A stretch of 64,000 nt of DNA from an uncultured Chloroflexia bacterium (GCA_963826225.1 CAWGWF010000001.1:2483023-2547022); one strand, 5' to 3'; positions 30,802 to 64,000 are shown, counted from the stretch's first letter. Numbers and translations are program-made. Notes: generated from the letters alone by a model not told the origin.

Positions 30802-30820
30802 CGCCCTGGCTCCTTCGTTC

Positions 30821-32320: not shown

Positions 32321-32325
32321 CCCGG

Positions 32326-34010: not shown

Positions 34011-34055
34011 GACGTTGCGATCGGCGGTGAGGTGGCTGCTCGTCGATGCCCGGGG

Positions 34056-46922: not shown

Positions 46923-49684
46923 GGCGCCACCTTCTCCACCCGGATCGCGCAGTGCTTGAGCTCCGCGGTCTGCGTGACCGGGTCCCCCGCCTCGATCGTG
47001 AGCACGTTCGCGTTCGCCTCCGCGAAGTGGAACGCCATCCAGCACACTCCGGGCGGCGACCGGTGGGTGACCCACGCCCGGACGTCCACCGAGCCGCGCC
47101 GGGACGTCACCCGCACCACCTCGCCGTCCGAGATCCCCAGCCGGGCCGCGTCGTCCGGGCTGAGCTCGATCAGCTCCTCCCCGCACACGGCCTCGAACCC
47201 CCCGGACCGCCGGGTCTGGGTGGCCGTCTGGTAGTGCCAAAGCCGCCGTCCCGTGCTGAGCACCAGCGGATAGTCGGCGTCCGGCGGCTCGGCCGGGGGA
47301 ACCCACTCGGCGGGAACGAACCGCCCCCTGCCGCGGGTGAACGCCCCGCCGGCGTGGAGGTACGGTGTGCCCGGGTGGTCCAGGGTGGGCGCCGGCCACT
47401 GGATGCCGACCTGCTCGCACCGCTCCCAGGTGATGCCGCCGTAGATCGGGCTGAGCGAGCGCAGCTCCTCCCAGATGTCCGCGGGCCCGGTGAACCCCAT
47501 CTCGTACCCCAGCCGCCGGGCCAGCTCCGCGAATATCCACCAGTCGGGGCGAGCATCTTCCGGCGGCTCCACGGCGCGACGGACCCGCTGAACCCGGCGC
47601 TCGGTGTTCGTGAAGGTCCCGTCCACCTCCGGCCAGGACGCCGCCGGGAACACGATGTCGGCAAGGGCGGTCGTCTCGGTCGGGAAGCAGTCATTGACGA
47701 TGACGAGCTCGGCCGCCCGGAGACAGGCGGCGACGTGCGCCGTGTTGGGCTCGCTCATCGCGATGTTCTCGCCGAACACGTACAGCGCCCGCAGGCTTCC
47801 GTCCTCCAGCCCCTCGAGCATGGACGGGATCGTGCGGCCGGGCCGGGTCGGCAGGCCGGGGCGGCCCCACGCCTGCTCGAACCGGGCCGCGACCATCGGG
47901 TCGTCCACCCGCTGGTAGCCGGGGTAGACGGCGGGCAGCGCACCCATGTCGCAGGCGCCCTGGACGTTGTTCTGGCCGCGCAGCGGGTTGAGCCCGGCCG
48001 ACGGCTTGCCGATGTTTCCCAGCAGCAGCTGGAGATTCGCGAGGGCCGTGACGTTGGCCGTGCCGGAGATGTGCTCGGTGATGCCCAAGGTGTAGTAGAC
48101 GCCGGCGGATTCGGCCTCGCCCAGCACCCGGGCGACGCGCCGGATGGTCTCCGCGTCCACGCCCGTGACCGCCGCCGCCCGCTCCACGGGCCAGTCGTCG
48201 ATCGTCGGCCGGAAGGCCTCGAAGCCCTCCGTGTGCTGCTCGACGAACGCCCGGTCCTCCCAGCCGCGATCCAGAATCTCATGCATCAGCCCGTTGAGGA
48301 GCGCGATGTCCGTCCCCACCCGGTGCTGGACGTGGATGTCCGCCCAGCGACACAGGTCGATCGTCCGGGGGTCGCACACGATGAGCGTCGCGCCCCGCTT
48401 GCGGGCCCGCTTCATGTACGACGCGATGACCGGGTGGGCCTCGGTCGTGTTGGAGCCGATGACCAGCAGCACGCGCGCCTGCTCGATCTCCCCGATCGAG
48501 TTCGTCATGGCCCCGGATCCGAAGCTGGTCGCCAGACCGGCGACAGTCGGAGCGTGTCACGTTCTCGCGCAGTGATCGAGGTTGTTGGTCCCGATCACCG
48601 CGCGTGCGAACTTCATCGCCGCGTAGTTGTGCTCGTTGGTGGACCGCGCACAGGCGATCAGCCCGATGGCGTCCGCGCCGTGCCTGTCCCGGATCCCGCG
48701 CAGGCGGTCCGCGGCCGTGTCCAGGGCCTCGTTCCAGGTCACGGGCTCCAGTGGCGCCTCCTTCGTCCGCCGCAGGAGTGGCGTGGTCAAGCGGTCGGCG
48801 CTGGACGTGAAGTCGTACGCGAAGCGGCCCTTGACGCACAGCATCCCGTCGTTGGGCGGCACGCCCTCCACGCCCGTGACCCGGACGACGCGGTTCGCGG
48901 CCCGGTCCACGTGGAGCTCCACCTGGCAGCCGGTGCCGCAGTAGGGGCAGGTTGTGCGCACCTTCTCGAGGGTCCACGCGCGGCCCTTGCCGATCGACTT
49001 CTTCTCGACCAGGGCCCCCGTCGGGCACAGCTGGACGCACTCCCCGCAGGACAGGCAGGAGGACGCGCCCATCGGCAGGTCCGCGTCGCAGATGACCCGT
49101 GTCTCGCCGCCGCGGTAGCCCATGTCAAGGACCTCGTTCACCACGAGGTCGTTGCACCCGCGGATGCATCGGAAGCAGCGGATGCATGCATCCGGGTCCC
49201 GGACGATGAACTGGCTGGACCGGTCAACCGGGTGGCGGCGGGCCGGCGGCGCGAACGAGGGGCGGCGGACGCCCAGGCGATAGGCGGCCTCGGCCAGCTC
49301 GCACCGGCCGGCGGCCTCGCAGGACAGGCAATCGTGGGTGCCGGCGGCGAGGAGCAGCTCCACATTGGTCCGGCGCGCCTCCAGGACCCGCTCCGAGGCG
49401 CCGGTCACGACCATGCCGTCGCGCGCCAGGAGCGTACAGGCCGTCTGCAGCGTGCCGCTCCCCTCGACCTGCACCACGCACGTCCGGCACAGCCCCGCCT
49501 GCCCCACCCGCGGGTGGTGGCACAGGCTGGGGACGTAGATGCCGTTCGCCTTCGCGGCCTCGAGGACCGTCTGCCCGGAGCGGGCCGACACCGGACGCCC
49601 GTCGATGACGAGACGCAGAGCCCCGGCGTCGCGGCCATCCCCGGGCCGGGCGGCGGGCCGTTGGGGCGCGGTTGCGACGTTCAT
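46919..49684 (-). CDS. fdhA: formate dehydrogenase alpha subunit, full length (2Fe-2S, 4Fe-4S domains plus molybdopterin domain), selenoprotein with TGA at 48557..48559 read as Sec
   Basis: ORFs 48557..49684 and 46919..48508 are contiguous in frame across one TGA. Context [35 protein letters not shown]. N-terminal CxxCxxC clusters (CHHPRVGQAGLCRTC, CLSCEAAGRCE, CIRCFRCIRGC, CLSCGECVQLCPTGAL, CPYCGTGCQ). Start ATG 49684 (MNVATAP...). Confidence 0.85.
48524..48556 (-). other. SECIS-like hairpin 3' of the Sec UGA of fdhA
   Basis: Minus-strand read UGA-CACGCUCCGACU-GUCGCC-GGUCU-GGCGAC. Identical stem-loop to the one at 37076..37092. Confidence 0.55.
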
Positions 49685-50530: not shown

Positions 50531-52348
50531 ATGAGCGATCCCCAGGGGGCCCGCGACCTCACGCGCCTGAAGTGGGCGACGATCATCCTGCCCGTCGTCT
50601 TCGTGTGGGGGTTCGAGCTGGCCCGGTTCCTGATCCTGGACCCCCAGGTCACCGGCGACGACGGGCACGTCCTGTCCGCGATGATCATGGGCGGCGCGAT
50701 CGTGGTGTTCGCGATGATCGTGTCCGTCTACCTGGACCGGACGCAGAAGCAGCTCCTCGCGCAGAACAAGGACCTCACGGTCACCCACGCCGTCAGCTCC
50801 GCAGTACGCGGCGGCCACTCGCTGCAGGACCTGCTGGACCAGGCGCTGGAGCGGATCGTGACCGAGACCGGGGCCCTGGCCGGCATCGTCACGGTGCGCA
50901 CGCCCGGCGGGGAGCCGCTCGCGATTCGCCGCCCCGTCACGTTCGCCCCCGGCCTCGCCTGGCTCGCCCCCATCCTGGACGAGGCGCCGGAGCCGTTCCT
51001 CGACGAGCCGCGCTACACGACCCGGTCCGGCGTGGACACCGGCATCCTGGACCTCCCCCTGATCCGGGGCGGCGGGAGCATCGGCCACCTGCGGCTGGCC
51101 TTCCATCCGCCCGTGCAACCGGACGTCTCCCCGGCGGCCCTGACGGACATCGCCGGCGAGATCGCCGGCGCCGCCCAGCTGGCGCTCACCGTCGCGGACC
51201 TCCATCGCCGCGAGCAGGAGAGCGCCGCGCTGTACGAGGTCGCGCTGCAGCTCACCGGCCGCGCGGACCTCCGGGCCATGCTGGACGCGATCACCGGCCA
51301 CGCCCGGGAGCTGCTGGGCGCGGAGCGCGCGGTCGCCTGCCTCGCGGACGCGCCCGAGTTCGCCGCCGGCAGCCGGGCATCCCGTGACCGCGTCGCGATG
51401 GCGGACGACGGCAGCGTCTGCCTGGTCGCCCACCAGGCCATCGCAGCCAACCACCCGCGGAACCCGCTGTGCCCGCTGCTGATCGCGGATCGCGAGCAGA
51501 CGCGAGAATGGGCCGCCCGCCCCCTTCGCGGCCCGGACGGGCTGCTGGGCGAGCTGTGCGTCGTCCGGACCGGCAAACCGTTCACGGAGCAGGAGCGGTC
51601 GCTGCTCGGCGCCCTCGCGGACATGGCCACCATCGCCATCCGGACCGCGCGTCTCCACGAGGCCGAGGAGCAGTGGACGATCCACGCCGAGCGCGACCGG
51701 ATCGCCCGCGAGCTCCATGACAGCCTCGCCCAGGTCCTGGGCGTCATCCACCTGCGGCTGCGCGCCCTGGAGACGCGGGCCAAGGACGAGGCCAGCCACG
51801 TCATGGCGGCCGAGATGTCCGAGATCGCCGAGACCGCGGACGAGGCCTACAAGGACGTCCGGGAGGCGATCCTGGGCCTGCGCGAGACCGTCCGGGAGGA
51901 CGACGGCCTGGAGGGCTCGCTGCGCGAGTACCTGCGCAAGTACAGTCGCCAGACGGGCATCGCCGCCACGCTCGCCTGCGAAGGCGACACGCGCCGCGCC
52001 CTCACGCCGCGCTCCGAGGTCCAGCTCCTGCGGGTGGTCCAGGAGGCGCTCACCAACACCCGCAAGCACTCCGGGGCCCGCCGGGTCACCGTGACCATCG
52101 ACTGCGAGGGCCCCGGCGCCACGCTCATCGTGGAGGACGACGGCGTGGGCTTCGACCCCGCCACCGTGGCCAGCTCGATGGAGGGCGGGTTCGGCCTGGC
52201 GTCCATGCGCGAGCGCGTCGAACAGATCGGTGGAACACTCGACGTGCATACTGCGCCGAACGAGGGGACGCGCGTCGTCGTCCGGCTCGAGGCAGAGGAC
52301 ACGCGTGTCACACGTTCCCCCCAGGCTGAGGATCCTGCTGGTCGATGA
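50531..52348 (+). CDS. sensor histidine kinase, tandem GAF domains plus HisKA_3/HATPase_c (NarX/NarL-type partner kinase), N-terminal membrane segments
   Basis: H-box IARELHDSLAQVLGVIHLRL, N/G boxes EALTNTRKHSGAR...DDGVGF...GGFGLASMRERV. Two GAF-like regions. ATG 50531. Confidence 0.85.
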   Translation: MSDPQGARDLTRLKWATIILPVVFVWGFELARFLILDPQVTGDDGHVLSAMIMGGAIVVFAMIVSVYLDRTQKQLLAQNKDLTVTHAVSSAVRGGHSLQDLLDQALERIVTETGALAGIVTVRTPGGEPLAIRRPVTFAPGLAWLAPILDEAPEPFLDEPRYTTRSGVDTGILDLPLIRGGGSIGHLRLAFHPPVQPDVSPAALTDIAGEIAGAAQLALTVADLHRREQESAALYEVALQLTGRADLRAMLDAITGHARELLGAERAVACLADAPEFAAGSRASRDRVAMADDGSVCLVAHQAIAANHPRNPLCPLLIADREQTREWAARPLRGPDGLLGELCVVRTGKPFTEQERSLLGALADMATIAIRTARLHEAEEQWTIHAERDRIARELHDSLAQVLGVIHLRLRALETRAKDEASHVMAAEMSEIAETADEAYKDVREAILGLRETVREDDGLEGSLREYLRKYSRQTGIAATLACEGDTRRALTPRSEVQLLRVVQEALTNTRKHSGARRVTVTIDCEGPGATLIVEDDGVGFDPATVASSMEGGFGLASMRERVEQIGGTLDVHTAPNEGTRVVVRLEAEDTRVTRSPQAEDPAGR

Positions 52349-53003
52349 CCAGCCACTGTTCCGCCGGGCGCTGGCGACCCTGATCAGCGCCCAGTTCGAC
52401 ATGACCGTCGTGGGCGAGGGCGAGAACGGGCGGGACGCCCTGGACAAGGTCCGGGCGCTGCAGCCGGATCTCGTGGTCATGGACGTCAACATGCCGGGCG
52501 CCGATGGCGTCGACGGCGTGCGCGCGATCCGCCAGGCGGGGTTCGCGACGCCGATCGTGATGCTCACGGTGTCCGAGGACGACGACGACCTGTTCGAGTC
52601 GATCAAGGCCGGCGCCAACGGGTATCTCCTCAAGAACGTCCGCCCGGAGCAGCTGTTCGAGGACCTGCGCGGCGTCATGCACGGCGAGGCCCCCATCGCG
52701 CCCGCCGTCGCCACCAGGCTCCTGGAGGCCCTCCGCACGGGTGGCATCCCGGCCCGCGGCGCCTCGACCGCTTCGCCGCCCGCCTCCGACAACATCCTCA
52801 CCCGCCGCGAGTCGGAGATCCTCCAGCTGGTCGCCGACGGCCTGTCCAACAAGGAGATCGCCAACCAGCTGACGATCACCGAGGGCACCGTCAAGAACCA
52901 CGTCCACAACGCGCTGGAGAAGCTGCACCTCACCAACCGGGTGCAAGCCGCCGCCTACGCCGTGCGCCAGGGCTACGCGAACCAGGAGCGCACCCGGGAC
53001 TGA
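52305..53003 (+). CDS. response regulator, NarL/FixJ (LuxR-type HTH) family
   Basis: Receiver domain RILLVDDQPLFRRAL...LVVMDVNMPGADG...GANGYLLK and LuxR HTH LTRRESEILQLVADGLSNKEIANQLTITEGTVKNHV. GTG 52305 chosen (ATG 52230 would overlap the kinase by 118 nt). Confidence 0.8.
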   Translation: MSHVPPRLRILLVDDQPLFRRALATLISAQFDMTVVGEGENGRDALDKVRALQPDLVVMDVNMPGADGVDGVRAIRQAGFATPIVMLTVSEDDDDLFESIKAGANGYLLKNVRPEQLFEDLRGVMHGEAPIAPAVATRLLEALRTGGIPARGASTASPPASDNILTRRESEILQLVADGLSNKEIANQLTITEGTVKNHVHNALEKLHLTNRVQAAAYAVRQGYANQERTRD

Positions 53004-53474
53004 CCGCCCCGTCCTGCACCCGGGGATGCAGCGCCGTCTCGCGACCCAGCCAGCCGCCCGACTCGTCGGCGGCGGACGCGCCACCCGGCCCGCCCGCGCA
53101 CCGCGCCGCAAACCACACCCGTCCGTGATTGCCCTCCGCGCATCACGTTGGGCGCCGACGAGATCTGTGTCGATCGGGTGGTCCGACGTCCCCTGCCTGC
53201 TGCGGACCGGAGCCCGGCACTTGTTCACCTCATCGGCCATATGCCCGTCACGTGAAATCCCGCCAGGAACCCGTGGCGCACAGGAGCCGCGACACCGCCC
53301 GACGCCGCCGGTGTGCACGTCCCGCAGCGGTGCGCAGCAGAACCGTCATCCCCCCGGCGATACAGGGCGCACGCATCGCGGCTGTGCAACCCGACGGATT
53401 GGAGACCGACTCCCGGACGCCTAGCATCCGTGGACGGGACGCACCCGCGGCCCACGGATTCCACGGGGGGCCAC

Positions 53475-53924
53475 GTGCCCGCAGGTCCGGTCAAGGTGCT
53501 CGTGCTCTACAGCCACCCGCTCATGGGCGAGGGGCTGGGGCAGATGCTGGCGGCCGAGCCGGGCATCGTGGTCTACGCGGTGGACATCGCAGAGCAGGCG
53601 GCGGTTGACGAAGCCCTCGCGAGCGAGCCGGCGATCATCGTCGTCGAGGAGGGCGGCCGCGTGGACGCGGCGGACGTGGTCCGGCGCTCCACCTGCCCGG
53701 TGGTCCTGGACGTGGACATCACCACGACCCGCGCCTGGGCGCTGCACCGGGAGTCGCTCAACAGCCGCCCGGACGAGTTCCTGGCCGCCATCCGCGCCGC
53801 GGTCAACGGCGCTGCGCTGCCGGCCGGGACCGGGGCCGGCGACGGAGCCGACGCAGCCACCGCGGATCGCCCCCACCGCACGAAGTCGGACAAGCCGCTC
53901 GCGCCGGTGATCACCCCCGGCTGA
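53475..53924 (+). CDS. hypothetical protein with receiver-like/flavodoxin-like fold features
   Basis: GTG 53475 after GGGGGG. VKVLVLYSHPLMGEGLGQMLAAEPGIVVYAVDIAEQ...PAIIVVEEGGRVDAADVV. No confident family. Confidence 0.4.
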   Translation: MPAGPVKVLVLYSHPLMGEGLGQMLAAEPGIVVYAVDIAEQAAVDEALASEPAIIVVEEGGRVDAADVVRRSTCPVVLDVDITTTRAWALHRESLNSRPDEFLAAIRAAVNGAALPAGTGAGDGADAATADRPHRTKSDKPLAPVITPG

Positions 53925-53946: not shown

Positions 53947-54237
53947 CTACTCGCGCGACGTCGCGGCGCGTGCCTCGCGCGCATCCTGGATCGTCACCAC
54001 GGCGACGCGGTCCGTGGCCGGTTCGTACACGTAGATGACGAGCATCCAGGGCCACGGTCCCAGGACGACACGAAACCCGGACCAGCCGCCCGACAATGCG
54101 CGGCCGAGCTCCGGGAACAGGCGCAGGGGCTCGATCGCAGATCGGACGCGCGCTCGCGTCGACGGCGGCAGAGACCGGGTCCGGATCAGGCGGTCCAGGT
54201 CCTCCCGGGCCGTCTCGGTGACGACCAGGCCGGCCAT
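53947..54237 (-). CDS. type II toxin, ParE/RelE family
   Basis: 96 aa. TETAREDLDRLIR...LFPELGRALSGGWSGFRVVLGPWPWMLVIYVYEPATDRVAVVTIQDAR matches the ParE/RelE pattern. Confidence 0.7.
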   Translation of the reverse strand: MAGLVVTETAREDLDRLIRTRSLPPSTRARVRSAIEPLRLFPELGRALSGGWSGFRVVLGPWPWMLVIYVYEPATDRVAVVTIQDAREARAATSRE

Positions 54238-54497
54238 CAGAGCTCGTCCGGCGACACCATCCGGCCGGCCTCGAGGTCGGCGAGACCCTGCTGCGCGCGC
54301 TCCCGCGCCCCGGGGATCGCGTCCAGCAAGGCGGTGATCGTCGCCGCGTCGGGATCCACCTGGTCCAGCGCCGTCGACAGCAGCGAGCGGGCGATCGTGC
54401 CCGGCTGGACGTACGTCCGCTCCGCGATCCGGTGAAGCCGGATCGCGTGCTCGTCATCGAGCTGGATGTTGAACCGGTTCGTGTGCTCCTCGGACAT
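54237..54497 (-). CDS. ribbon-helix-helix (CopG/ParD-like) antitoxin
   Basis: 86 aa from ATG 54497 (MSEEHTNRFNIQLDDEHAIRLHRIAERTYVQPGTIARSLL...). 1-nt overlap with the toxin start. Confidence 0.65.
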   Translation of the reverse strand: MSEEHTNRFNIQLDDEHAIRLHRIAERTYVQPGTIARSLLSTALDQVDPDAATITALLDAIPGARERAQQGLADLEAGRMVSPDEL

Positions 54498-54594: not shown

Positions 54595-55086
54595 ATGGGT
54601 GACGCCTTCGACCCCCTCGGCACGCCGATCCCCCGGCGCAACGTCCTCAAGCTCATCGGCGTCGGCGCGCTGGCGGCCGGCAGCCTGGGCGTGGTGCTCG
54701 AGGGCTGTGTCGGGCCGCCCGTGACCGTGACCCTGGACTACGACCTCGGCACCCTCGAGACCGGCGTGCCGACGAAGGTGGACTTCAACGTCCCGATGGG
54801 CGGCTCCGACGTCGAGGGCGCCGTCTGGTTCGTGAAGCAGACGGACGGCACCATCGACGCCTTCGACCCGCGCTGCACCCACGCCCTGTGCGCCTACGTG
54901 TGGGAGGACGCGGACCGGCAGTTCCGCTGCTACTGCCACGAGGCGCAGTTCGCGATCGACGGCGCCGTCCTGGACGGTCCGCCCCCTCGCCCACTGGACC
55001 AGTTCCCGATGCGCGTCACCCCCGCCGGCGTGGAGCTGGACGTGCCGGGCAACTTCCAGACCCCGCGGGAGAGCCTGCCGGAGTAG
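54595..55086 (+). CDS. Rieske [2Fe-2S] domain protein with Tat signal
   Basis: RRNVLKLIGVGALAAGSLG twin-arginine signal. Rieske boxes CTHALC and CYCHEAQF 17 residues apart. Confidence 0.8.
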   Translation: MGDAFDPLGTPIPRRNVLKLIGVGALAAGSLGVVLEGCVGPPVTVTLDYDLGTLETGVPTKVDFNVPMGGSDVEGAVWFVKQTDGTIDAFDPRCTHALCAYVWEDADRQFRCYCHEAQFAIDGAVLDGPPPRPLDQFPMRVTPAGVELDVPGNFQTPRESLPE

Positions 55087-55103: not shown

Positions 55104-55334
55104 TCAGCCCGCGACGAGTCGGCGCGACCGCGGTGACGTCTGCGCCCTGGCCAGAAGATCGTCCGCAGCGGCAACAAACTGGCTCCCGGCACCCTTGCGA
55201 TCCAGCTGCAGGACCAGATCCTGGGCATCGTCGTTGATGCGAACCTCATCGAGGACGGCCTGCAGCGCATCGGCCTCCGTCGCGAAGTCGCCGATGAGGT
55301 TGCCCGTTTCCGTGTGCCAGAGCGAGTAGCGCAT
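55104..55334 (-). CDS. hypothetical small protein (76 aa)
   Basis: MRYSLWHTETGNLIGDFATEADALQAVLDEVRINDDAQDLVLQLDRKGAG. Coding-like composition. Operonic with 55347..55763. Confidence 0.4.
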   Translation of the reverse strand: MRYSLWHTETGNLIGDFATEADALQAVLDEVRINDDAQDLVLQLDRKGAGSQFVAAADDLLARAQTSPRSRRLVAG

Positions 55335-55346
55335 CGTCCTCGCAGC

Positions 55347-55763
55347 CTACAGCGGAAGATCCGGAGGTGTCACGCAGGCCAGAAGGTCCGACCGCGAGCC
55401 GAAGAGGTCCCAGTGATGATCGTTGCCGAACTCGTCGTCACAGCTGATGGGGCTCGACGCCGGCACGTCGAGGGTGCTGATGTGCGTGAGAGGCGACCCT
55501 TTCGGCCGCCGCCGGAACATCTCATGCTGATCTCGTGCGGCCTCGACCTCGTCGTAGACGGAGATCCCGTTCATGACCGAATCCAGCAACGACCCGGCCA
55601 TGCCCGGACGAGTGCGGTAGCCGGGGACGCGCCCCTGGGGAACGAAGTCCTCCGTCGTTGGCGGGCTCGACCGCACGAGCCTGTAGAACCTCCGGCCCGC
55701 CGCCGACCTTCGCATTCCATGCACTCTCCCGCTTCGGGGGTCGCCATGCTTCCCGCCGGTCAA
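55347..55763 (-). CDS. hypothetical protein (138 aa)
   Basis: Lower-GC, non-repetitive ORF, good codon usage, no family assigned. Confidence 0.4.
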   Translation of the reverse strand: MTGGKHGDPRSGRVHGMRRSAAGRRFYRLVRSSPPTTEDFVPQGRVPGYRTRPGMAGSLLDSVMNGISVYDEVEAARDQHEMFRRRPKGSPLTHISTLDVPASSPISCDDEFGNDHHWDLFGSRSDLLACVTPPDLPL

Positions 55764-55832
55764 GGTAGCGCGCTGCGCTTATCACTCGTTCAACAGCCCG
55801 TCGTTCCATCCATGGCGCGGTAGTCTTGGGAC

Positions 55833-56177
55833 GTGGAGACGATCACCACATCGATCTCGCTCGGCACGCTGACCGACATGGCATCGGGCCGCTTCGGCAA
55901 CCTGGTCAAGGCCGTGGTCGACCTCGAGCGCGGCGTCATGGTCGTGGACGCCGATATGCACGCCGACGAGGAGGCGCTCCTGCTCCACTCGGGTTCGACC
56001 CAGGACCATCGGTGGGGGATCAACCTCTATCCTGCCGACCACGGGTCCGACGCGTTCCTGGAGTTCGACTCCGCCATCAACATCCGGCCGGGCCAAGGCA
56101 ACCGCTCGAGGTCGGTGGAGGACGCGACCACGAGGGCGGCCATCAAGGCCCTCGTTGGCAGGCTGGTGCGGCCATGA
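55833..56177 (+). CDS. hypothetical protein (114 aa)
   Basis: METITTSISLGTLTDMASGRFGNLVKAVVDLERGVMVVDADMHADEEALLLHSG... ATGA overlap with the next ORF. Confidence 0.45.
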   Translation: METITTSISLGTLTDMASGRFGNLVKAVVDLERGVMVVDADMHADEEALLLHSGSTQDHRWGINLYPADHGSDAFLEFDSAINIRPGQGNRSRSVEDATTRAAIKALVGRLVRP

Positions 56178-56508
56178 GCCTGCACCGGGAGCTGGCCGCG
56201 GGTCGCTGGTGGACCATGACCCTACCCGAGCAGATGGCGAACGCAGGGGCCGACGTCGGGACGCGCCATCCGGGCGAAGCAGACGGGCGACGACACGCGG
56301 TTCGAGCCCGCCTTCGCCCGGGCACTGGACCTCCTGGACATGACCCTCGCCGACGACCGCCGAACCGGACCACAACTGCGGGAGATCGCCCGGATGCGCG
56401 AGGTCGTGTGCGACTACCTGGACGGCGACAACGTCTACGGCTCGACGCCGGAGTGGATCGAGGGCTACTTCACCCAGTTCGCGCTCGCGGCCCGACGCGA
56501 TCGCTGAC
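56174..56508 (+). pseudogene. hypothetical protein, apparent +1 frameshift near 56258
   Basis: MSLHRELAAGRWWTMTLPEQMANAGADVG | RAIRAKQTGDDTRFEPAFARALDLLDMTLADDRRTGPQLREIARMREVVCDYLDGDNVYGSTPEWIEGYFTQFALAARRDR. Two coding-like halves in adjacent frames. Confidence 0.4.
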
Positions 56509-56609
56509 AAGGCGCCGGACGCTCGCAGGGCCGCCCCGGCGTCCGGCGGCACGAACGGCTCTCGCGTGCGCGCGCCACTCCGCGAGAGAGCCACGCTCCG
56601 GTAGTGTCT

Positions 56610-56648
56610 CATAGGATTGACAGTAACCGCCTAACTGCATAGCCTATG
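56610..56648 (+). promoter_or_regulatory. hipBA promoter/operator: -35 TTGACA (56617-56622), 17-bp spacer, -10 TAGCCT (56640-56645), embedded in inverted repeat CATAGG...CCTATG; leaderless start at 56653
   Basis: Read directly. Only AT-rich patch in the region. The inverted repeat spans both promoter hexamers, consistent with HipB autorepression. Confidence 0.45.
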
Positions 56649-56652
56649 TGAC

Positions 56653-56967
56653 ATGAGCAACCGGTCCATCCCCACCTACCCTCGATACGTCCGTCTTGCG
56701 GGCGACCTGGGTGAGCGGCTGCGGGCGGCGCGGCTGCGCCGACGCCTCTCCGTCGCGGAGATGGCGGAGCGCATGGACGTGTCCCGACCAACGCTCTACC
56801 GCCTCGAGCACGGGGACCTGTCGGTCAGCATGAGCGTCCTGGTCCGCGCCCTTGGGGTGCTGGGCCTGGAAGGCGATCTTTCGGCGCTGGCCGCCAACGA
56901 TGAGCTCGGGCGGAAGATCGCCGATGCCACCAGCACCGCACGGCGCCGTCGGACGCCGGCCCCATGA
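56653..56967 (+). CDS. hipB: HipB-like XRE-family HTH antitoxin
   Basis: 104 aa. LRAARLRRRLSVAEMAERMDVSRPTLYRLEHGDLSVSMSVLVRALGVLG. 4-bp overlap with hipA. Confidence 0.75.
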   Translation: MSNRSIPTYPRYVRLAGDLGERLRAARLRRRLSVAEMAERMDVSRPTLYRLEHGDLSVSMSVLVRALGVLGLEGDLSALAANDELGRKIADATSTARRRRTPAP

Positions 56968-58208
56968 CCCGCGAGCTGCCCGATACGGTGACGGTCGAGC
57001 TCGACGCCGCCGACCTTGGCGGCCCGACCACGATCGGGACGCTGCGGCGCACACGGGCCGTGGGCGGCTCCCTCGTCGGCTTCGCGTACGACCCGGCCTG
57101 GCTCGCCCGCGGCGAGGCGTTCGTCATCGACCCGCTCCACGGACACTACCCCGGCGACCAATGGCCCCGGGACGGGCAGATCGACCGCATCTTCAGCGAC
57201 GCGGCGCCCGACCGTTGGGGGCGGACCCTCATGGACCGCCGTGAGGCCGCGATGGCACGCGACGAGCAGCGGCCCAGACGCGCCCTGGGTGCGTGGGACT
57301 ACCTGCTCGGGGTGTCCGACGTTTCGCGCATGGGCGCCCTCCGCTTCCGATCGCCCGATGGTCGCTGGCTGGACGATGATCAGGTCGGGGTACCGCCGAC
57401 GGCGCGCCTTCCGGAGCTCGTCGCGGCCGCGCGCGCCATCGAGCACGGGCCACGAGGCGGGCGCAGGGAGGCCCACCACCTCGCGCTGCTCCTCGCCCCG
57501 GGCAGCTCCCTCGGCGGCGCCAGGCCCAAGGCCAGCTACCTTGCCGATGACGGCTCGCTGTGGATGGCCAAGTTCCCCTCCCGCAACGACAGCCGGGACA
57601 TGGCGGCGTGCGAGTGGGCGCTCAACGAGCTCGCAGCCAGGGCCGGGATCGACGTTCCCGAGCACCGGCTTCTCGCGTTCGGGCGCGGCCACCGGACCTT
57701 TGCGGCACGCCGGTTCGACCGGGTCGCCGGGACCAGGCGTATGTACGCGTCCGCGATGACGCTCCTGTCACGCCGGGACGGCGAGCCAGCGAGCTACCTG
57801 GACATCGCCCTGGCGATCGCCGATCACGGCGAGCGGGGAGCGATCGACGCGCAGCTCGCGAGCCTGTTCCGCCGAGTTGCGTTCAATGTCCTGGCGGCCC
57901 ATCGCGATGATCACCTGCGCAACCATGGGTTCGTGCGCACACCCCGCGGCTGGTGGCTGGCGCCCGCCTTCGATCTCAACCCGACGCCGGACAAGGCGGA
58001 GCACGAGCTGGCGCTCGACGACGCCGTGCACGCCGGGGACATCGACCTCGTGATCGAGACGGCCCCGTTCTACCGGCTCACGGCCGGCGCCGCGCACGCG
58101 ATCGTCGCGGAGGTTCGCGCAGCGCTGGCCACGTGGCCGGCCGTCGCCCGGGCCGGGAACCTCGGACCGGGCGAGATCGAGACCCTGCGCGAGGCGCTCG
58201 CGGCCTGA
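56964..58208 (+). CDS. hipA: HipA-family serine/threonine kinase toxin
   Basis: 414 aa. HipA N-terminal (GTLRRTRAVGGSLVGFAYDPAW) and C-terminal kinase-like blocks (GGARPKASYL, KFPSRNDSRDMAACEWALNELA, NVLAAHRDDHLRNHGF, FDLNPT). Confidence 0.8.
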   Translation: MTRELPDTVTVELDAADLGGPTTIGTLRRTRAVGGSLVGFAYDPAWLARGEAFVIDPLHGHYPGDQWPRDGQIDRIFSDAAPDRWGRTLMDRREAAMARDEQRPRRALGAWDYLLGVSDVSRMGALRFRSPDGRWLDDDQVGVPPTARLPELVAAARAIEHGPRGGRREAHHLALLLAPGSSLGGARPKASYLADDGSLWMAKFPSRNDSRDMAACEWALNELAARAGIDVPEHRLLAFGRGHRTFAARRFDRVAGTRRMYASAMTLLSRRDGEPASYLDIALAIADHGERGAIDAQLASLFRRVAFNVLAAHRDDHLRNHGFVRTPRGWWLAPAFDLNPTPDKAEHELALDDAVHAGDIDLVIETAPFYRLTAGAAHAIVAEVRAALATWPAVARAGNLGPGEIETLREALAA

Positions 58209-58452
58209 GCGACCCACCCTCGCGTGCGCGTACGCGCGTGCACGGCACGCAAGGTCCCGGGTGCCGCGGGACCTCCGGCCCGGTCCGGTGTGACCTCCGG
58301 GGGCCGCTCGATACAGGAATCGTGGTGCGTCCGCGCCACACCCTGTATCGCAGTTCTATCCCCCGACGGATGGGATCTCGCCCTCGCGCGCCCGATCATT
58401 GCCACAGGTCGGTTCGTCCGATTCCGCCGACCGTGGAGTGAAGGTGCCTTTG

Positions 58453-59472
58453 ATGTCCCGGGTCACGTCCCTGACCAACATGCCCGACGCCCAGCTCAAC
58501 CGCTGGATCAAGCGGCTCGGCGCTGCTGCTGCTTGTCGTCCTCGTCGCGTTCGTCGCGTTCTACGCCGTCGATCGCTTCCGGATGCCCACGACGCCGATC
58601 ATGGACCGCGAGCTGGCGGCGCCGAGGAGGCCGTGCGGGCCGATCCGACCGACATCGACGTCGCGGGGCCGGCTTGCGGATGCATCTACTTCCTGGCGGA
58701 GCGCTACGACGATGCGATCGCGCAGTACTCGGAGCTGCTCGGACCGGCAAGGCAGGACGAGGCCGCGTACGTCAGCCGCGGCTCAGGCCTACGAGCGCAA
58801 CGGGGGAGCTCGACGCGGCGGCCGCCGACTACGCGAAGGTCATCGAGATCGGCCTGGGACCGGCGAGATGGCGAACGTCGACCCGATGCTGCCAGACGGC
58901 CTACTACGGGCTCGGCACGATCGCGCTCGCCCAGGACCGCGCCGATGACGCCATCGAGTCGCTCCTCAAGGCGCTGCGCCATCAAGCGCACTGACGCCGA
59001 CACCATGAACCTGCTGGGCGCCGGCATACGTGAAGGCGGGTCAAGCCCGGAGAAGGCCGTTCGAGCCCCTGCGCTCGCGCGATCCTGTTCGTGCCCACCC
59101 GGCTGGCCCGAGCCGTACCAGTCACTGGCGGCCGCATACACCGCGACCGGCGAGGCCGAGCAGGCGGAGTGGGCCGCCGCGATGGCCGAGGCGATGGCGG
59201 CCCTGGCCGAGGGCGGATCCGGCGACACGTCCGGTGCGGTCGCACGACTCGAGGCCATCGCCGACGGCGACGCGGCGCTCGACGCACGGATCGGCCTGGG
59301 ACTCTGCCGAGCGAGCGCAGGCGACAACGCGGCCGCCGAGGGCTGGTACCGGAAGGCGCTCGAGCTCGACGCCGAGAGCCAGGCCGCCCAGCTCGGCCTG
59401 AGCCGCGTCTCGGGCGGCACACAGGCCCATCCCGACATCATGCCTTCGCCCAGCGCCGAAGGGAGCAACTGA
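58453..59472 (+). pseudogene. membrane-anchored TPR-repeat protein, fragmented across three frames (at least four frameshifts)
   Basis: A TM helix (LLLVVLVAFVAFYAV) and TPR-like repeats (AYYGLGTIALAQDRADDAIESLLKALR; YRKALELDAESQAAQLGL) occur in different frames over 58453-59472. GGAGTGAAGGTG RBS before ATG 58453. Confidence 0.45.
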
Positions 59473-60564
59473 TGACCGCGTCCCCCACCGTCGCCCCGTC
59501 CCGGCATGCCGCCCACCGGCATCGGCGAGACGTCCCGCCGGCGGGGTCGGCCCCGACGATGTCGTCGACGAGGAGCCGCCGCGGAGGCGGCGCCGCAAGC
59601 TGCTGCTCCTGCTGCTGTTCCTGCTCCTGGCGCTTCATGCTCCTGCTCGGCGCTGGCGATCTGGTACCTGCTCTTCCGGCAGCCGATCCCGGTCCCCGTG
59701 ATCCCGGGCGAGACGATCATGCCGGGCTACGTCACCTCCATGTACGGGGCGGACTCCGCCCGATGGGCGTCGCGGTGACCCCGGCCGGCGACCGCGTCTA
59801 CATCGGCGAGACCGAGGGCCCGCAGATCGCGCGGGTGTTCGACGCCGCGGGCAACCGAGCATCGGCCAGATGCAGCCACCGCTGTCGACCGGCAGCGACC
59901 ACGTCCCGGTCTACCTGGCGGCGGACCCGCTCACCGGGCGAGGTCTACGTCACCGATCGGCCCACCGGCGTCGATCTACATCTACGACGCCGACGGCGAC
60001 CTATCAGCGCACCGTCCGATCCGCGGCCCGACGTGAAGGGCTGGCAGCCCCTGGGCCTGACGTTCGACGCGGCCGGCAACCTGTACGTCACCGACTATCG
60101 GCGAGCGCCGCACCGGATGCTCGTGTTCGACCCGTGCGGGGACACGGTCCGGACCTCGGCGAGGACGCCGACCTCAACTTCCCGAACGGCGTGGCGGTCG
60201 AGACGGCCGGCAACGTGTACGTCACGGACAGCAACAACGGCCGCCTGCTCGTGTTCGACAGGACCGGCAACTCGTCGCCAGGTCGGCCGGGGCGCGGGCG
60301 AGGGCAATCTCGGCCTGCCGCGCGGCGTTGCGATCGACGGCCAGGGCCGCGTGTACGTCGGTGACACGACCGGCCATGCCGTCTTCGTGTACTCGACGTT
60401 CCAGGCGGGCGAGCGGCACGCCTCGAGTACCTGGGCTCCTTCGGCGGCCAGGGCATCGCCGACGGGAAGTTCATGTTTCCCCAACGGCAGTCACGGTCGA
60501 TGCCCGCGGCCGCATCTACGTGGCCGACTCCGGGAACGACCGGGTCCAGTTGTGGAGCTACTGA
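59472..60564 (+). pseudogene. NHL-repeat (six-bladed beta-propeller) protein, heavily frameshifted (at least six frame changes)
   Basis: NHL blades in alternating frames: GVAVTPAGDRVYIGETEG, GEVYVTDRPTGV, LGLTFDAAGNLYVTDY, PNGVAVETAGNVYVTDSNNGRLLVFD, PRGVAIDGQGRVYVGDTTGHAVFVY, AVTVDARGRIYVADSGNDRVQLWSY. Confidence 0.5.
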
Positions 60565-60668
60565 GCCCATGAGCAGCAGCAAGGGAGGTGAGCCGGAGGA
60601 GTGCATCGCCGCCGAACGGGCGGCCCACGTCCAATTCCCACAGTGAGAGAGAAAGGAGGTGAGGACAG

Positions 60669-62213
60669 TTGAGAAGGCTGATGCTGCTCATCGCAGCCGG
60701 TAGTCTCTGGCTGTTCCTTGCCGCAGTTCCCGCCCTCGCGGACGGTGGACCCCATGTGGCATCGATCAACAACGGCTCGACTTCGCTGACCGCGGATTCG
60801 TGCGCCGGGTGCCACCGGGCTCACACCGCGCAGGGCGCCATGCTCCTGACCGTTCCCGAGGAGGAGCTCTGCGAGTCGTGCCATGGTGACGCCGTTCCGG
60901 GCGCCACCACGGACGTCTGGTCGGGCGTCCAGTACGCCCTCGGGGCCGACGGCCTCCGCGACCAGGCCGCCACCCTCGGCGCGCTGCGCAGCGGTGGCTT
61001 CGAGAGCACCTTGATCGGAGACCCGGTCAAGAAGGTTGTAGGTACATCGACATACGCGAAGGTCACGGTCGGTGCATCCGCGCCGGTCACCTCCGCGCAC
61101 CTCGACATGACCGGCACCCTTGGACAGTTGAGCATCGCCTGGGGCAACGGCACTCCCGCCGACGGCGCAGGGCCGGCAGCGGCCATCGAGTGCACCTCGT
61201 GCCACAACGTCCACGGCAACGGCCAGTACCGCATCCTGAACCGCATCCCCGAAGGCGACGGCACCGACGACGCGTGGGTCGTGGACATCTACGACTTCAA
61301 CAACGGCGTCTACAAGTCCGCCGCGAGCCATGGCCTGCTCAACGGCGACACCGTCACCGTGGCCGGCAACAGCCTGGCTGGGGCCAACGTCACCGGCATC
61401 GTGACCATCGTCGATGATCCTGGCGACGCCGATCTCCTGGCCGACGACGACCTGTTCTTCACCGTGGCCGGAGCTCCCGCGACCGGCACGGGCACGGGTG
61501 GCACCGTTACCCGGAGCACTGCTGCCGGAGTCGGCGGCGTGAAGGTTACCGACTTCCCGCTGGCGACCGACATCCCCGACGGGGATGCTCGCAACTACAC
61601 CGTCATCCAGACACTCGCTTCGGCGCCCACGCTGCTGGCCAGCGAGGCCGAGACGTACGACCCGACCGACGGTGACTACTTCCACTACCGCATCCCGTGG
61701 GACGGCACTGGTGCCCTGAACACGGGCTACAACTACGATGCGCCGAACGCCCAGACCGGGACGGCCATCACCGTCAGCGGTCGATCGTCGATCGCGGTTG
61801 GCGACCGCTCGTTCAGCCAGGAGATCACCGCGTGGTGCACCTCCTGCCACACCCGCTACTGGGCGTGGTCGCAGCCGACGACGGACCCCAGCGACGGCAC
61901 CACCGGAGCGGCGTACAACACGCCGCGACCCGGCGACAACGTCTTCACGTACCAGCACCGGACCCGTGGCTCTTCGAACCGCGGGTGCAACACCTGCCAC
62001 GTCTCTCACGGCTCCAGCGCCGAGATGACCGGCTTCGCGGCCGACGTTCCGTTCCCCGGCGAGACGGCCGGATCGGACAACAGCCGGATGCTGAAGGTGG
62101 ACGACCGCGGGACGTGCCAGCTCTGCCACGACCCGACGGAAACCCTCACCTTGCTCGGTGATGGGCTCTATGGGCCGGACGGACCGATCACCACGGACCC
62201 CGGACGCCCCTGA
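60669..62213 (+). CDS. secreted hexaheme c-type cytochrome (six CxxCH motifs), paralog 1
   Basis: Signal peptide. CAGCH, CESCH, CTSCHNVHGNG, CTSCHTRY, CNTCHVSHG, CQLCHDP. TTG 60669 7 nt after AAAGGAGGTGA (alternative ATG 60681). Confidence 0.75.
   Translation: MRRLMLLIAAGSLWLFLAAVPALADGGPHVASINNGSTSLTADSCAGCHRAHTAQGAMLLTVPEEELCESCHGDAVPGATTDVWSGVQYALGADGLRDQAATLGALRSGGFESTLIGDPVKKVVGTSTYAKVTVGASAPVTSAHLDMTGTLGQLSIAWGNGTPADGAGPAAAIECTSCHNVHGNGQYRILNRIPEGDGTDDAWVVDIYDFNNGVYKSAASHGLLNGDTVTVAGNSLAGANVTGIVTIVDDPGDADLLADDDLFFTVAGAPATGTGTGGTVTRSTAAGVGGVKVTDFPLATDIPDGDARNYTVIQTLASAPTLLASEAETYDPTDGDYFHYRIPWDGTGALNTGYNYDAPNAQTGTAITVSGRSSIAVGDRSFSQEITAWCTSCHTRYWAWSQPTTDPSDGTTGAAYNTPRPGDNVFTYQHRTRGSSNRGCNTCHVSHGSSAEMTGFAADVPFPGETAGSDNSRMLKVDDRGTCQLCHDPTETLTLLGDGLYGPDGPITTDPGRP
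60741..60962 (+). repeat. 222-bp segment identical to 62436..62657 (5' regions of the two cytochrome genes)
   Basis: Direct comparison of the two gene 5' regions: exact identity over 222 bp, then divergence. Confidence 0.8.
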
Positions 62214-62223
62214 TCCTCAACTC

Positions 62224-62256
62224 CCCTGGCGGCCACCCTTGCGGGGGCCGCCAGGG
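62224..62256 (+). terminator. GC-rich stem-loop (11-14 bp stem) 10 nt after the cytochrome-1 stop
   Basis: CCCTGGCGGCC-acccttgcggg-GGCCGCCAGGG. No U-tract (common in high-GC genomes). Confidence 0.4.
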
Positions 62257-62315
62257 CCCTCACCGGAACTCGACGTTCTCGCAAGAACCGCAACCATCCC
62301 GACGAAGAACAGTCA

Positions 62316-63680
62316 ATGCGCCCCAGGAGCGATGCGATGACCAATGTCGCCAGAACCGCCGCCGCCAGGACGGCGGTTCTTGGCCCGCTACTCCTGATCG
62401 CCTGGCTCTTCCTCGCCGCGATCCCGGCCCTGGCGGACGGTGGACCCCATGTGGCATCGATCAACAACGGCTCGACTTCGCTGACCGCGGATTCGTGCGC
62501 CGGGTGCCACCGGGCTCACACCGCGCAGGGCGCCATGCTCCTGACCGTTCCCGAGGAGGAGCTCTGCGAGTCGTGCCATGGTGACGCCGTTCCGGGCGCC
62601 ACCACGGACGTCTGGTCGGGCGTCCAGTACGCCCTCGGGGCCGACGGCCTCCGCGACGACGCCACCCTCCTGGGTGCGCTTCGCGGCGGCGGCTTCGACC
62701 AGGCCCGGATCGCGGCCGACGACCCAGCACGACGATTCCAGTCAGGATCTGCCATCAACGTCTGGGCGAAGGTGACCGTTGGAACGGGCGCCGACGTCAC
62801 CTCCGCGCACTTGAACCTCGCGGACAACGCGCTCTCGGGCCCGACGGTGGCCTGGGGCAACGGCGCCATCCCGGGCGACGGGTCCCAGATCGGACCCGGG
62901 CCTTCCGTCTCCATCGGGTGCGGCACGTGCCACAACGTCCATGGGAACGGGAAGTACCGGATCCTGCAGACCATCCCGGGCGAGAACCTGACGGGCGGCT
63001 TCGTCGCCGTTGCCGCTCCCGGCGTCACGGTCACCGACAACCCGCTCGCCACCACGATCCCCGACGGGGACGCGCGGAACTACACCATCCTGCAGGTCCG
63101 GCCGGCGACCGGGGGCACGTACATGCTCCTCGCGAGCGATGTGCTGGACGCCCGGAAGCTGAACGACGGCAACCCCGCCACGAACCCGACCAAGACCTGG
63201 CCGGCCGGCGACTACACGGCCACCGGCGGCGACTACTGGCACGTCCGCGTGCCATGGAACAGCGCGACGAGCAACGCCGACGCGCCGAATGGCCTGCCGA
63301 GCGGCGTGAACGCCTTCAACGACCAGATGACCAGCTGGTGCGGCGCGTGCCACACGCGCTACATGGCGAACACTGGAACTCCCTGGATCGACGAGTCGGG
63401 CGATGACATCTTCAAGTACCGGCACCTGACCGGGGGGCGACTCGCCTGCACGACGTGTCACGTCTCCCATGGGTCGAACGCCCGGATGGCGGGCCCGAAC
63501 TCCCGCACCCAGCCGTTCCCGGATGGAACGGTCGTCAGCTATGACATCAACGGGGCCACCGGCGACAGCCGCCTGCTCAAGGTGGACGGCCGTGGCACCT
63601 GCCAGCTCTGCCATGACCCCACGGGGACGGTCACGGCAGGCACCTACACCGGACCCCCCACGGTCCCCGGCGTCCCCTGA
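62316..63680 (+). CDS. secreted hexaheme c-type cytochrome, paralog 2
   Basis: CAGCH, CESCH, CGTCHNVHGNG, CGACHTRY, CTTCHVSHG, CQLCHDP. The first ~75 mature residues are identical to paralog 1. Confidence 0.75.
   Translation: MRPRSDAMTNVARTAAARTAVLGPLLLIAWLFLAAIPALADGGPHVASINNGSTSLTADSCAGCHRAHTAQGAMLLTVPEEELCESCHGDAVPGATTDVWSGVQYALGADGLRDDATLLGALRGGGFDQARIAADDPARRFQSGSAINVWAKVTVGTGADVTSAHLNLADNALSGPTVAWGNGAIPGDGSQIGPGPSVSIGCGTCHNVHGNGKYRILQTIPGENLTGGFVAVAAPGVTVTDNPLATTIPDGDARNYTILQVRPATGGTYMLLASDVLDARKLNDGNPATNPTKTWPAGDYTATGGDYWHVRVPWNSATSNADAPNGLPSGVNAFNDQMTSWCGACHTRYMANTGTPWIDESGDDIFKYRHLTGGRLACTTCHVSHGSNARMAGPNSRTQPFPDGTVVSYDINGATGDSRLLKVDGRGTCQLCHDPTGTVTAGTYTGPPTVPGVP
62436..62657 (+). 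repeat. second copy of the 222-bp identical segment (see 60741..60962)
   Basis: As above. Confidence 0.8.
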
Positions 63681-63687
63681 GCCTATC

Positions 63688-63723
63688 GGCGTCGATGGCC
63701 TCCTCGTGATGGCCATCGACGCC
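63688..63723 (+). terminator. perfect 13-bp inverted repeat GGCGTCGATGGCC-N10-GGCCATCGACGCC 8 nt after the cytochrome-2 stop
   Basis: Read directly. Strong hairpin, no U-tract. Confidence 0.45.
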
Positions 63724-63749
63724 ACACCCAGACGAGCCAACGCGACCCC

Positions 63750-64000
63750 ATGAGCCACCAACTGCGTCCCGGCACCCGTCGCGCCGGCCCCATCTTCGGG
63801 GTCCTGCTCGTCGTGGTCGGCGCATTCGCCGCGCTCACGCCCGCCGTCCCCAGCGCTCGCGCAGTCGACCCGACCCCGTCCCCCGAGCCGACGGCCGCGC
63901 CCGATCCGACCCCCGCGCCCGATCCGACCCCCGCGCCCGATCCGACCCCAGTTCCGGATCCGACCCCCGCGCCCGATCCGACCCCCGCGCCCGATCCGAC
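63750..64000 (+). CDS. secreted protein with signal peptide and tandem PDPTPA repeats (partial, continues beyond the window)
   Basis: MSHQLRPGTRRAGPIFGVLLVVVGAFAALTPAVPSARA then (PDPTPA)n encoded by an 18-bp tandem repeat from ~63898 to the window end. Confidence 0.5.
   Translation, partial: MSHQLRPGTRRAGPIFGVLLVVVGAFAALTPAVPSARAVDPTPSPEPTAAPDPTPAPDPTPAPDPTPVPDPTPAPDPTPAPDP

Follow-up and report, generated by a model that had tools for sequence, protein, structure and literature searches.

The stretch of DNA considered here (the window) comprises 64,000 nucleotides, with a G+C content of 73%, from an uncultured Chloroflexia bacterium (GCA_963826225.1, CAWGWF010000001.1:2483023-2547022), and towards its 3' end lie two tandem genes, cytA and cytB, for hexahaem c-type cytochromes that are remotely homologous to OmcS of Geobacter. 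The first gene, cytA (60669-62213, plus strand), encodes a protein of 514 residues, predicted to be Sec-exported; cytB (62337-63680, plus strand) encodes a second OmcS-like hexahaem cytochrome of 447 residues. The latter is without the insert of about 90 residues that cytA carries between haems 3 and 4 and that is predicted to form a beta-barrel (model pLDDT 80-97). The start of cytA was set at the TTG at 60669 because a Shine-Dalgarno sequence precedes it, and the public 510-residue call implies a start four codons further downstream; across the related loci the codon at 60669 is kept as TTG or GTG. The longest open reading frame (ORF) of cytB opens at 62316 and would give 454 residues; the start at 62337 was picked from an AGGAG 7 nt upstream and matches the public 447-residue call. 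Both proteins begin with a signal peptide that ends in PALA, with DGGPH as the first residues after the cleavage site. Each contains exactly six CxxCH motifs and 12 cysteines, none of them outside the motifs, which begin at residues 45, 68, 175, 390, 440 and 483 of CytA and at residues 54, 77, 195, 335, 371 and 422 of CytB (447-residue numbering). An earlier model-made note on this DNA (the sequence-only reading) had described two secreted proteins with six CxxCH motifs each, and the ORFs, signal peptides and motif counts bear this out. That they are genuine multihaem c-type cytochromes was likewise borne out by the Pfam family Paired_CXXCH_1 (PF09699), which scores 67.5 bits for CytA and 59.1 bits for CytB, far above its curated cut-off of 20.6; TIGR01905 scores 59.9 and 53.3 bits against a cut-off of 25.2, and the Pfam families c7 and c3_2 also exceed their cut-offs.

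The closest known family of these cytochromes is that of OmcS. We built a profile from 48 family members and searched it against all PDB sequences, where only two cytochromes fell below E 0.01, namely MtrA and OmcS (6EF8); the MtrA match rests on a single paired-CXXCH module, and the OmcS match (E 0.0059) consists of four colinear stretches. The OmcS family was represented by an alignment of 29 proteins found with the OmcS sequence, the first member being P0121, labelled by NCBI as "c-type cytochrome OmcS [Geobacter]". Comparison of the two families by hhalign gave a probability of 98.0% and an E value of 2e-13, and with relaxed thresholds the two families align over their whole length, signal peptide to C-terminus, with haems 1-6 paired in register. 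The matched local contexts include CSSCHDPHGKYR with CTSCHNVHGNGQYR, EWCANCHT with AWCTSCHT, CLSCHRAHAS with CNTCHVSHGS, and the C-terminal R-x-x-C-x-x-CH. Proteins rich in CxxCH inflate profile scores, which would weigh against such a comparison, but the off-register controls argue otherwise here: they reach 6e-5 to 2e-4, and the in-register sub-regions give 1.8e-10, 1.6e-9 and 1.6e-5. Reciprocal matches between the hidden Markov models (HMMs) of the two families score 11-31 bits, and the OmcS-family HMM matched almost none of the heptahaem controls (two, at 11-13 bits). At the level of single sequences, tblastn aligned OmcS residues 34-269 with a cytochrome copy of one related locus (L011) at 27.5% identity.

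The architecture of the proteins agrees with this placement. OmcS (GSU2504) and OmcT (GSU2503), the former known from the filament structures PDB 6EF8 and 6NEF, are, like CytA and CytB, hexahaem proteins of about 400-490 residues when mature and have a Sec signal peptide. In OmcS, as in CytA and CytB, haems 1, 3 and 5 are bound by CxxCHxxH and haem 4 by WCxxCHT, and the CxxCH of haem 6 lies at the C-terminus. The differences are that the identity is 27% over part of the protein, that the loops differ and that CytA has its 90-residue insert; moreover, OmcS forms filaments, whereas CytA and CytB are known here from sequence alone. In CytA the conserved histidines outside the motifs are H29, H52, H144, H182, H430 and H447, all invariant or at least 90% conserved in the family. 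Their counterparts in the OmcS precursor, H27, H41, H135, H172, H282 and H360, are placed among the motifs in an identical sequence. Both families thus have exactly 12 conserved histidines for six haems, so that CytA and CytB would hold six bis-His haems with distal ligands matched in order to those of OmcS. H52 of CytA (in CAGCHRAH), three residues past haem motif 1 and at least 90% conserved, aligns with OmcS H41, which is His16 of the mature protein. This is the residue that Wang et al. in 2019 are said to have found to ligate haem 5 of the next subunit. A cross-subunit bond between histidine and haem in OmcS filaments is described elsewhere with the residue unnumbered (PMC12307469; PMC12954529). 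Judged from these profile and ligand comparisons, the cytA/cytB family is a large, uncharacterised and distant branch of the OmcS family.

Other multihaem families, several of which the sequence-only reading had put forward for comparison, fit less well. MtrA/DmsE (PDB 6R2Q chain A) has in common with CytA and CytB the paired-CXXCH module (PF09699/TIGR01905) and nothing further: one module aligns, MtrA/DmsE has ten haems and CytA and CytB six, and the NCBIfam decahaem model TIGR03508 gives 35.7 and 29.8 bits against a cut-off of 192.2. OmcA/MtrC was rejected on TIGR03507 (22.2 and 10.7 bits against 209.3) and on PF22113 (26.5 and 23.4 bits against 30), and NrfH/NrfB and ExtM on NCBIfam scores far under their cut-offs. 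For OmcZ and the Thermincola-type cytochromes the PDB search gave no sequence match, and no direct comparison was made. The inositol monophosphatase matches that a single-sequence phmmer search of the PDB returned were judged spurious.

Both cytA and cytB are found in the public protein collection on one contig of 2.69 Mb, and at least 955 proteins of this collection are related to them at E <= 1e-3. The named relatives belong to Chloroflexota or Ca. Limnocylindrales and carry only the annotation "cytochrome c3 family protein". A scan of the GTDB species genomes found 442 stretches that encode a relative, and the best 77 of these 442 were used for the locus comparisons. They come almost entirely from metagenome-assembled genomes (MAGs) of Chloroflexota of the Limnocylindria/RIF-CHLX type; a few bins bear the label Actinomycetota, and many of the relatives derive from long-read projects with megabase contigs. 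The kinase and the response regulator encoded upstream of the cytochromes are 82% and 89% identical, respectively, to their counterparts in Chloroflexi RBG_16_72_14. The sequence-only reading had taken the source for a high-GC Gram-positive-type genome, in which multihaem cytochromes would be uncommon. This reading of the source has to be given up: relatives, kinase and regulator all point to Chloroflexota, every named relative being of Chloroflexota or Ca. Limnocylindria (RIF-CHLX type), and within Limnocylindria the cytochrome cluster is the rule and not a rarity.

The genes surrounding cytA and cytB form a conserved cluster, whose order is kept in about 75 genomes, or nearly all of the 77 loci. 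It begins with a GAF-HisKA_3 kinase, a LuxR regulator and a 138-residue protein, continues with Rieske, TPR and NHL propeller proteins and then one or two OmcS-like cytochromes, and ends with a surface-protein gene of 1.1-1.8 kb and a further, heptahaem cytochrome, which has seven CxxCH motifs in the locus L001. The cluster members in the window lie on the plus strand. The sensor histidine kinase (50531-52348; Pfam GAF, HisKA_3 and HATPase_c) occupies the corresponding place in most of the 77 loci. The LuxR/NarL-type response regulator (52305-53003; Pfam Response_reg and GerE) always comes after the kinase; where the match is full-length, its identity is 55-89% in most related loci. The next gene, which we call h138 (53430-53924), encodes a conserved protein of 138-164 residues, syntenic in most loci, without a Pfam match and by eye resembling a degenerate receiver domain. 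The small Rieske [2Fe-2S] protein (54595-55086; Pfam Rieske 8e-10), also syntenic in most loci, has a twin-arginine leader, PRRNVLK, as read by eye. It is followed by the genes of a membrane-anchored TPR protein (58438-59470), whose intact orthologue is pure TPR by Pfam, and of a membrane-anchored NHL six-bladed beta-propeller (59457-60561), whose intact orthologue matches Pfam NHL at 4.9e-32; in both proteins we see by eye an N-terminal hydrophobic helix after R/K residues. Downstream of cytB, the 5' end of the surface-protein gene (63750-64000, running off the window) encodes a signal peptide and a PDPTPA linker made of an 18-bp unit repeated 7.5 times (63866-64000, TRF). The orthologue in L001 (12980-13561) contains a SpaA_2 prealbumin-like domain (Pfam 1e-29). 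The PDPTPA-repeat secreted protein that the sequence-only reading had placed here is thus present, with conserved SpaA_2 orthologues.

On account of their signal peptides, membrane anchors and twin-arginine leader, all products of the cluster other than the regulatory ones are predicted to lie outside the cytoplasmic membrane. The suggestion that the locus looks like an extracellular or cell-wall electron-transfer module is in keeping with this setting of the cytochromes among putative extracytoplasmic proteins. Two insertions interrupt the cluster in this genome and are absent at these positions in about 70 related genomes. One is a ParE toxin gene with a putative antitoxin (53947-54497, minus strand; Pfam ParE_toxin, with ParE itself at 53947-54237) between h138 and the Rieske gene; the other is a strain-specific insertion of 3.3 kb between the Rieske and TPR genes (55104-58208, unstranded), with two small ORFs, DUF5674, a HipB-like helix-turn-helix protein (HTH_31) and a HipA toxin (HipA_C 1.7e-42). 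In L001 and other genomes the gap between the Rieske and TPR genes is just about 250 nt. The arrangement of NHL gene and cytochromes is also seen in a few MAGs labelled Actinomycetota (Ilumatobacteraceae, Nanopelagicales; loci L053, L054, L062, L066 and L072) and in one labelled Deferrimicrobiaceae (L028); these labels could reflect horizontal transfer or binning contamination.

The NHL and cytA genes are separated by a spacer of 105 nt (the equivalent in L001 is 9895-10000), which contains a conserved 5' leader (60566-60668, plus strand) which was delimited by aligning 13 loci and scanning all loci for the pattern. It consists of box 1, AAGGGAGGTGAG (60582-60593), which is a GGGAGGTG-type box across the loci, a GC hairpin, CGCCGCCGAACGGGCGGC (about 60608-60625), and box 2, AGAAAGGAGGTGAGGACAG (60650-60668), an extended and almost invariant Shine-Dalgarno sequence followed by TTG or GTG. 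In the hairpin the pairing is kept and the sequence varies (CGCCGCC...GGCGGC, GCCGGC...GCCGGC, GCCGCCG...CGGCGGC). Box 2 contains what we take, from the 3' end of the 16S rRNA, to be a perfect Shine-Dalgarno sequence of 13 nt, followed by GGACAG. Both boxes were present in 41 of the 49 distinct leaders scanned, at a spacing of 63-80 nt that falls into phases 0, 1 and 2 in 18, 12 and 11 loci. The two Shine-Dalgarno-like boxes noticed in the sequence-only reading are therefore conserved; the two mini-ORFs it noticed with them exist in the window and are not conserved, and we regard a role as leader peptides as rejected and the frames as chance, since the spacing of the boxes does not keep to one phase and stops interrupt the frames in many loci. 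The leader matches no Rfam family, and the window copy taken alone has no significant fold (z -0.05). The strong GC hairpins reported after each cytochrome gene do fold significantly: the one after cytA (62224-62256, plus strand) has arms of 14 nt, a dG of -34.3 kcal/mol and z -4.67, and the one after cytB (63688-63723, plus strand) has perfect arms of 13 nt, a dG of -29.4 kcal/mol and z -5.43. Neither has a T tract, and thus they are not canonical intrinsic terminators; such terminators and sigma-70 promoters were not found in 60400-64000.

The comparison with the Geobacter omcS locus (L079) supports the kinship at the level of gene order. This locus comprises a kinase, a sigma-54 regulator, a 315-residue protein, OmcS, OmcT, a 1017-residue protein, OscC (a third OmcS-like cytochrome), a YNCE-type propeller and a 718-residue protein. 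The 315-residue protein is an NHL propeller that shares 27% identity (E 4e-14) with the Limnocylindria NHL protein, and it finds the NHL gene of the cluster in 71 sources, namely 70 related loci and the window. An NHL propeller and a two-component system upstream of tandem OmcS-type genes are therefore common to the Geobacter locus and the 77 loci, the tandem paralogues lying directly downstream of the NHL gene, as cytA and cytB do. For GSU2505, the six-bladed NHL propeller beside omcS in Geobacter, a requirement in OmcS assembly or expression has been proposed (PMC9070056). Its gene directly precedes the OmcS-type gene on the same strand, as does the NHL gene of the window cluster, and the two proteins show the 27% identity (E 4e-14) given above; that of the window cluster differs by a membrane anchor at its N-terminus with a cytoplasmic stub rich in R/K. 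Orthology of the two is suggested mainly by position, as NHL repeats match one another generically. Further differences are that the regulator of the omcS locus is of the sigma-54 type and that of the window cluster of the LuxR type, and that the Geobacter omcS locus lacks the Rieske, TPR, SpaA_2 and heptahaem partners. The osc (omcS-companion) cluster of Geobacter (cited in PMC13194489; bioRxiv 10.1101/2025.11.06.686851) likewise places an accessory beta-propeller and further multihaem cytochromes beside OmcS-type genes, whereas the accessory set here consists of TPR, NHL, Rieske and SpaA_2 proteins. The linker of the surface protein recalls another Geobacter component, the trihaem cytochrome PgcA, which has PT-repeat linkers. 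In both cases PT-rich linkers belong to an extracellular component of an electron-transfer locus; in PgcA they sit in the cytochrome itself, and in the window cluster the linker sits in a separate, haem-free SpaA_2 protein.

Taking these data together, we consider it probable, with some reserve, that CytA and CytB are Sec-exported bis-His hexahaem cytochromes at the core of a Limnocylindria-wide cluster that serves as a conduit for electrons at the cell surface or across the wall. The two-component system would switch the operon on, and the perfect 13-nt Shine-Dalgarno sequence would drive high translation. The cytochromes would then be exported, loaded with haem outside the membrane and, by analogy with OmcS, stacked head to tail, H52 of CytA ligating haem 5 of the neighbouring subunit. 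In such a scheme assembly or anchoring may fall to the NHL and TPR proteins, and the wire may be coupled to the membrane by the Rieske and heptahaem proteins. Electrons could flow in either direction, for the reduction of Fe, Mn or humics or for uptake from Fe(II) or Mn(II). The host lineage is generally regarded as having no outer membrane, unlike Geobacter.

Several observations weigh against this interpretation. The homology to OmcS is remote, with cross-family HMM scores of just 11-31 bits, and a single-sequence phmmer search of the PDB gave no OmcS match. No cytochrome c maturation genes were found within the 64-kb window, where a CcsA-type W-rich motif is also absent; the window alone was examined in this respect. 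With the osc genes sampled from the Geobacter locus, that is OscC, the OscD propeller, the OscE-like 718-residue protein and the GSU2502-like 1017-residue protein (OscF-K were left out), tblastn found no homologue in the window or within 10 kb of any of the 77 loci. In this genome, moreover, the TPR and NHL genes, to which we return below, read as broken. Finally, filaments from OmcS relatives are unproven beyond G. sulfurreducens OmcS itself (bioRxiv 10.1101/2025.11.06.686851), and the physiological role of OmcS filaments is itself under debate (PMC11077965).

One could therefore argue that CytA and CytB are monomeric hexahaem carriers of the wall zone, which carry electrons between the Rieske and heptahaem proteins of a membrane complex and a soluble or enzymatic partner, without polymerisation and without long-range or extracellular transfer, so that the likeness to OmcS would reflect nothing but shared ancestry of the haem core. 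Most OmcS paralogues, such as OmcT, OmcJ and OscC, are indeed not known as wire formers (bioRxiv 10.1101/2025.11.06.686851), the sampled osc secretion and assembly genes are missing from the flanks, no structural match was obtained and a Rieske partner is unusual among known systems of extracellular electron transfer. However, the histidine equivalent to OmcS His16 (CxxCHxxH) is kept in at least 90% of the family, and the exact number of 12 conserved histidines for six haems is that of OmcS. The extended and strongly conserved 13-nt Shine-Dalgarno sequence suggests very high expression, as is typical of a structural subunit, and the genes are linked to a surface protein with a PT linker and SpaA_2 domain and to an NHL propeller, the latter as at omcS. 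We thus consider purely monomeric carriers rather unlikely and retain the surface or wall-spanning conduit as the preferred reading.

The state of the TPR and NHL genes raises the question of whether the conduit is still functional in this organism. Frameshift-aware alignment recovers the NHL protein at full length, 68% identical to its orthologue in L025 over 360 residues, with 13 single-base shifts at 59499-60480, and the TPR protein at 55% identity to that of L002, with about 8 shifts at 58519-59324. Together these are about 21 frameshifts in about 2 kb (58519-60480), all of +1 or -1 nt and in similar numbers, with no in-frame stop and no multi-base deletion in the patch. It could be that the module is dead here: a toxin-antitoxin insertion would have been followed by loss of the TPR and NHL genes, and the cytochromes would be relics on their way out. 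The density of shifts fits this, as does the 3.3-kb insertion unique to this genome directly upstream, and other genes of the window are also split or garbled, namely selD, selB (near 16290) and an MFS gene (1-606). The balanced single-base character of the shifts speaks against decay, though, and so does the corrected NHL protein, whose 68% identity to its orthologue is above what the intact cytochromes show to theirs. Both cytochrome genes are intact over 3 kb, without frameshifts and with every conserved cysteine and histidine present. The pattern fits a consensus of raw-read quality, and because indels at a rate of about 1% are concentrated in a sharply bounded 2-kb patch beside a strain-variable insertion, on a contig of megabase scale (2.69 Mb, comparable to the long-read megabase contigs of the relatives), we favour a consensus artefact over true decay, if not decisively. 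A dead module is accordingly doubtful in our view. Of the decayed NHL gene described in the sequence-only reading, the frameshifted gene at 59457-60561 is real, and its decay is questionable. Together with the isolated frameshifts in selD, selB and the MFS gene, the patch suggests a long-read assembly with a consensus that is poor in places, and pseudogene calls in this genome are not to be trusted without the reads.

The two cytochrome genes share a tract of 225 bp (60738-60962 in cytA and 62433-62657 in cytB, both plus strand) that is identical in 225 of 225 positions; the exact identity noted earlier for 60741-60962 and 62436-62657 thus runs 3 nt further to the left. The tract covers cytA codons 24-98, from the first residue after the cleavage site (ALA before, DGG after) to just beyond haem 2. 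In a codon alignment all 75 third positions inside the tract agree. Outside it, the genes are 64% identical in nucleotides and the proteins 54.5% identical, and third positions of identical-residue codons agree in 62% of cases (36% in the signal peptides), so that the chance of 75 agreements in a row at the outside rate is about 0.62^75, or roughly 1e-16. With the tract or N-terminal module set aside, the nearest relative of cytA is the first copy of L001 (57%) and that of cytB the second copy of L061 (64%). The copy nearest in sequence comes from the same position in another genome in 38 of 44 cases, and cytB is orthologous to the second copies of other genomes. As the copies group by position across genomes and the identity is limited to the tract, the duplication is old and the identity stems from recent conversion. 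The sequence-only reading had left a choice between recent duplication and gene conversion; the former drops out, each copy being nearer to its positional counterpart elsewhere than to its partner, and the tract, as read from these comparisons, stems from a recent conversion event between paralogues of ancient origin. It is very improbable that the identity goes back to a recent tandem duplication, or that one paralogue was copied onto the other as an artefact of assembly or polishing: short-read polishing with multi-mapping reads can make repeats identical and the assembly has other marks of an imperfect consensus, but duplication is ruled out by the 64% identity of the remaining gene parts and the positional grouping, and an artefact is unlikely given the unique flanks, the tract boundaries that are codon-exact at the cleavage site and the same phenomenon in independent assemblies of other projects (L011, L038 and L032).

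The conversion is confined to the most conserved part of the protein, the N-terminal dihaem module, and conversion of the same 5' end happened independently in these other genomes. In L011 an exact run of 560 nt covers this end of the cytochrome pair, with 98-100% identity over 560-621 nt (10034-10654 against 11753-12373); in L038 the 5' part is 90% identical against 74% for the remainder of the gene pair, and in L032 it is 88% identical between the tandem copies. An excess of 5' identity was not seen in 18 other cytochrome pairs. The recurrent conversion of the dihaem module offers a natural experiment that bears on which subunit region has to stay matched between paralogues. As a speculation, unlikely to be right in all its parts, we put forward that Limnocylindria and a few Actinomycetota may build OmcS-type wires without an outer membrane by means of a minimal, ancestral assembly set of NHL and TPR proteins, kept in part at the Geobacter omcS locus. 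The wire would be joined to the membrane through the twin-arginine-exported Rieske protein and the heptahaem cytochrome. CytA and CytB would polymerise together, their N-terminal "plug" (the inter-subunit histidine module) being kept identical by recurrent conversion so that both fit the same socket.

This locus bears on the spread of cytochrome "nanowires" and on the minimal machinery of their assembly. To our knowledge, solved structures of such wires come from Geobacter, one Desulfuromonas and two archaea only. In the literature searched, homologues of OmcS have been described mainly in Desulfuromonadia and Anaeromyxobacter and once in a Coriobacteriales MAG (28% identity). The present locus defines a large unannotated sister family of OmcS with the same haem and ligand pattern, and its neighbourhood is kept across a class of Chloroflexota that are abundant in soil, aquifers and freshwater. 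The Limnocylindria lineage is usually modelled as aerobic heterotrophs. If surface electron conduction is true, a major uncultured lineage would join the redox cycling of iron, manganese or humics, and the shared NHL-omcS core would become a testable candidate for an ancestral assembly factor. The searchable full text on OmcS together with Chloroflexi or Limnocylindria does not describe the cluster; Shen et al. 2025 (osc, Cell Chem Biol) and Baquero et al. 2023 lie outside that coverage, so that a prior description of Chloroflexota homologues is possible.

Away from the cytochrome cluster, the window contains a selenocysteine island (15307-21821, with further parts at 36800-38722 and 46919-49591). 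It includes a tRNA-Sec (20598-20690, minus strand, Rfam 70.4 bits), selA (17267-18649, minus strand), selB (15307-17270, minus strand), which is split near 16290, and selD (20760-21821), which is spread over two ORFs, with profile positions 1-107 and 202-308 in different ORFs. Two genes of the formate-dehydrogenase alpha type have one in-frame TGA each, at the expected position of the active-site selenocysteine. Lastly, four tandem paralogues at 26427-36400 resemble trimethylamine/glycine-betaine methyltransferases (MttB superfamily) and adjoin a PotABCD-like ABC transporter, both as read by eye from the translations.

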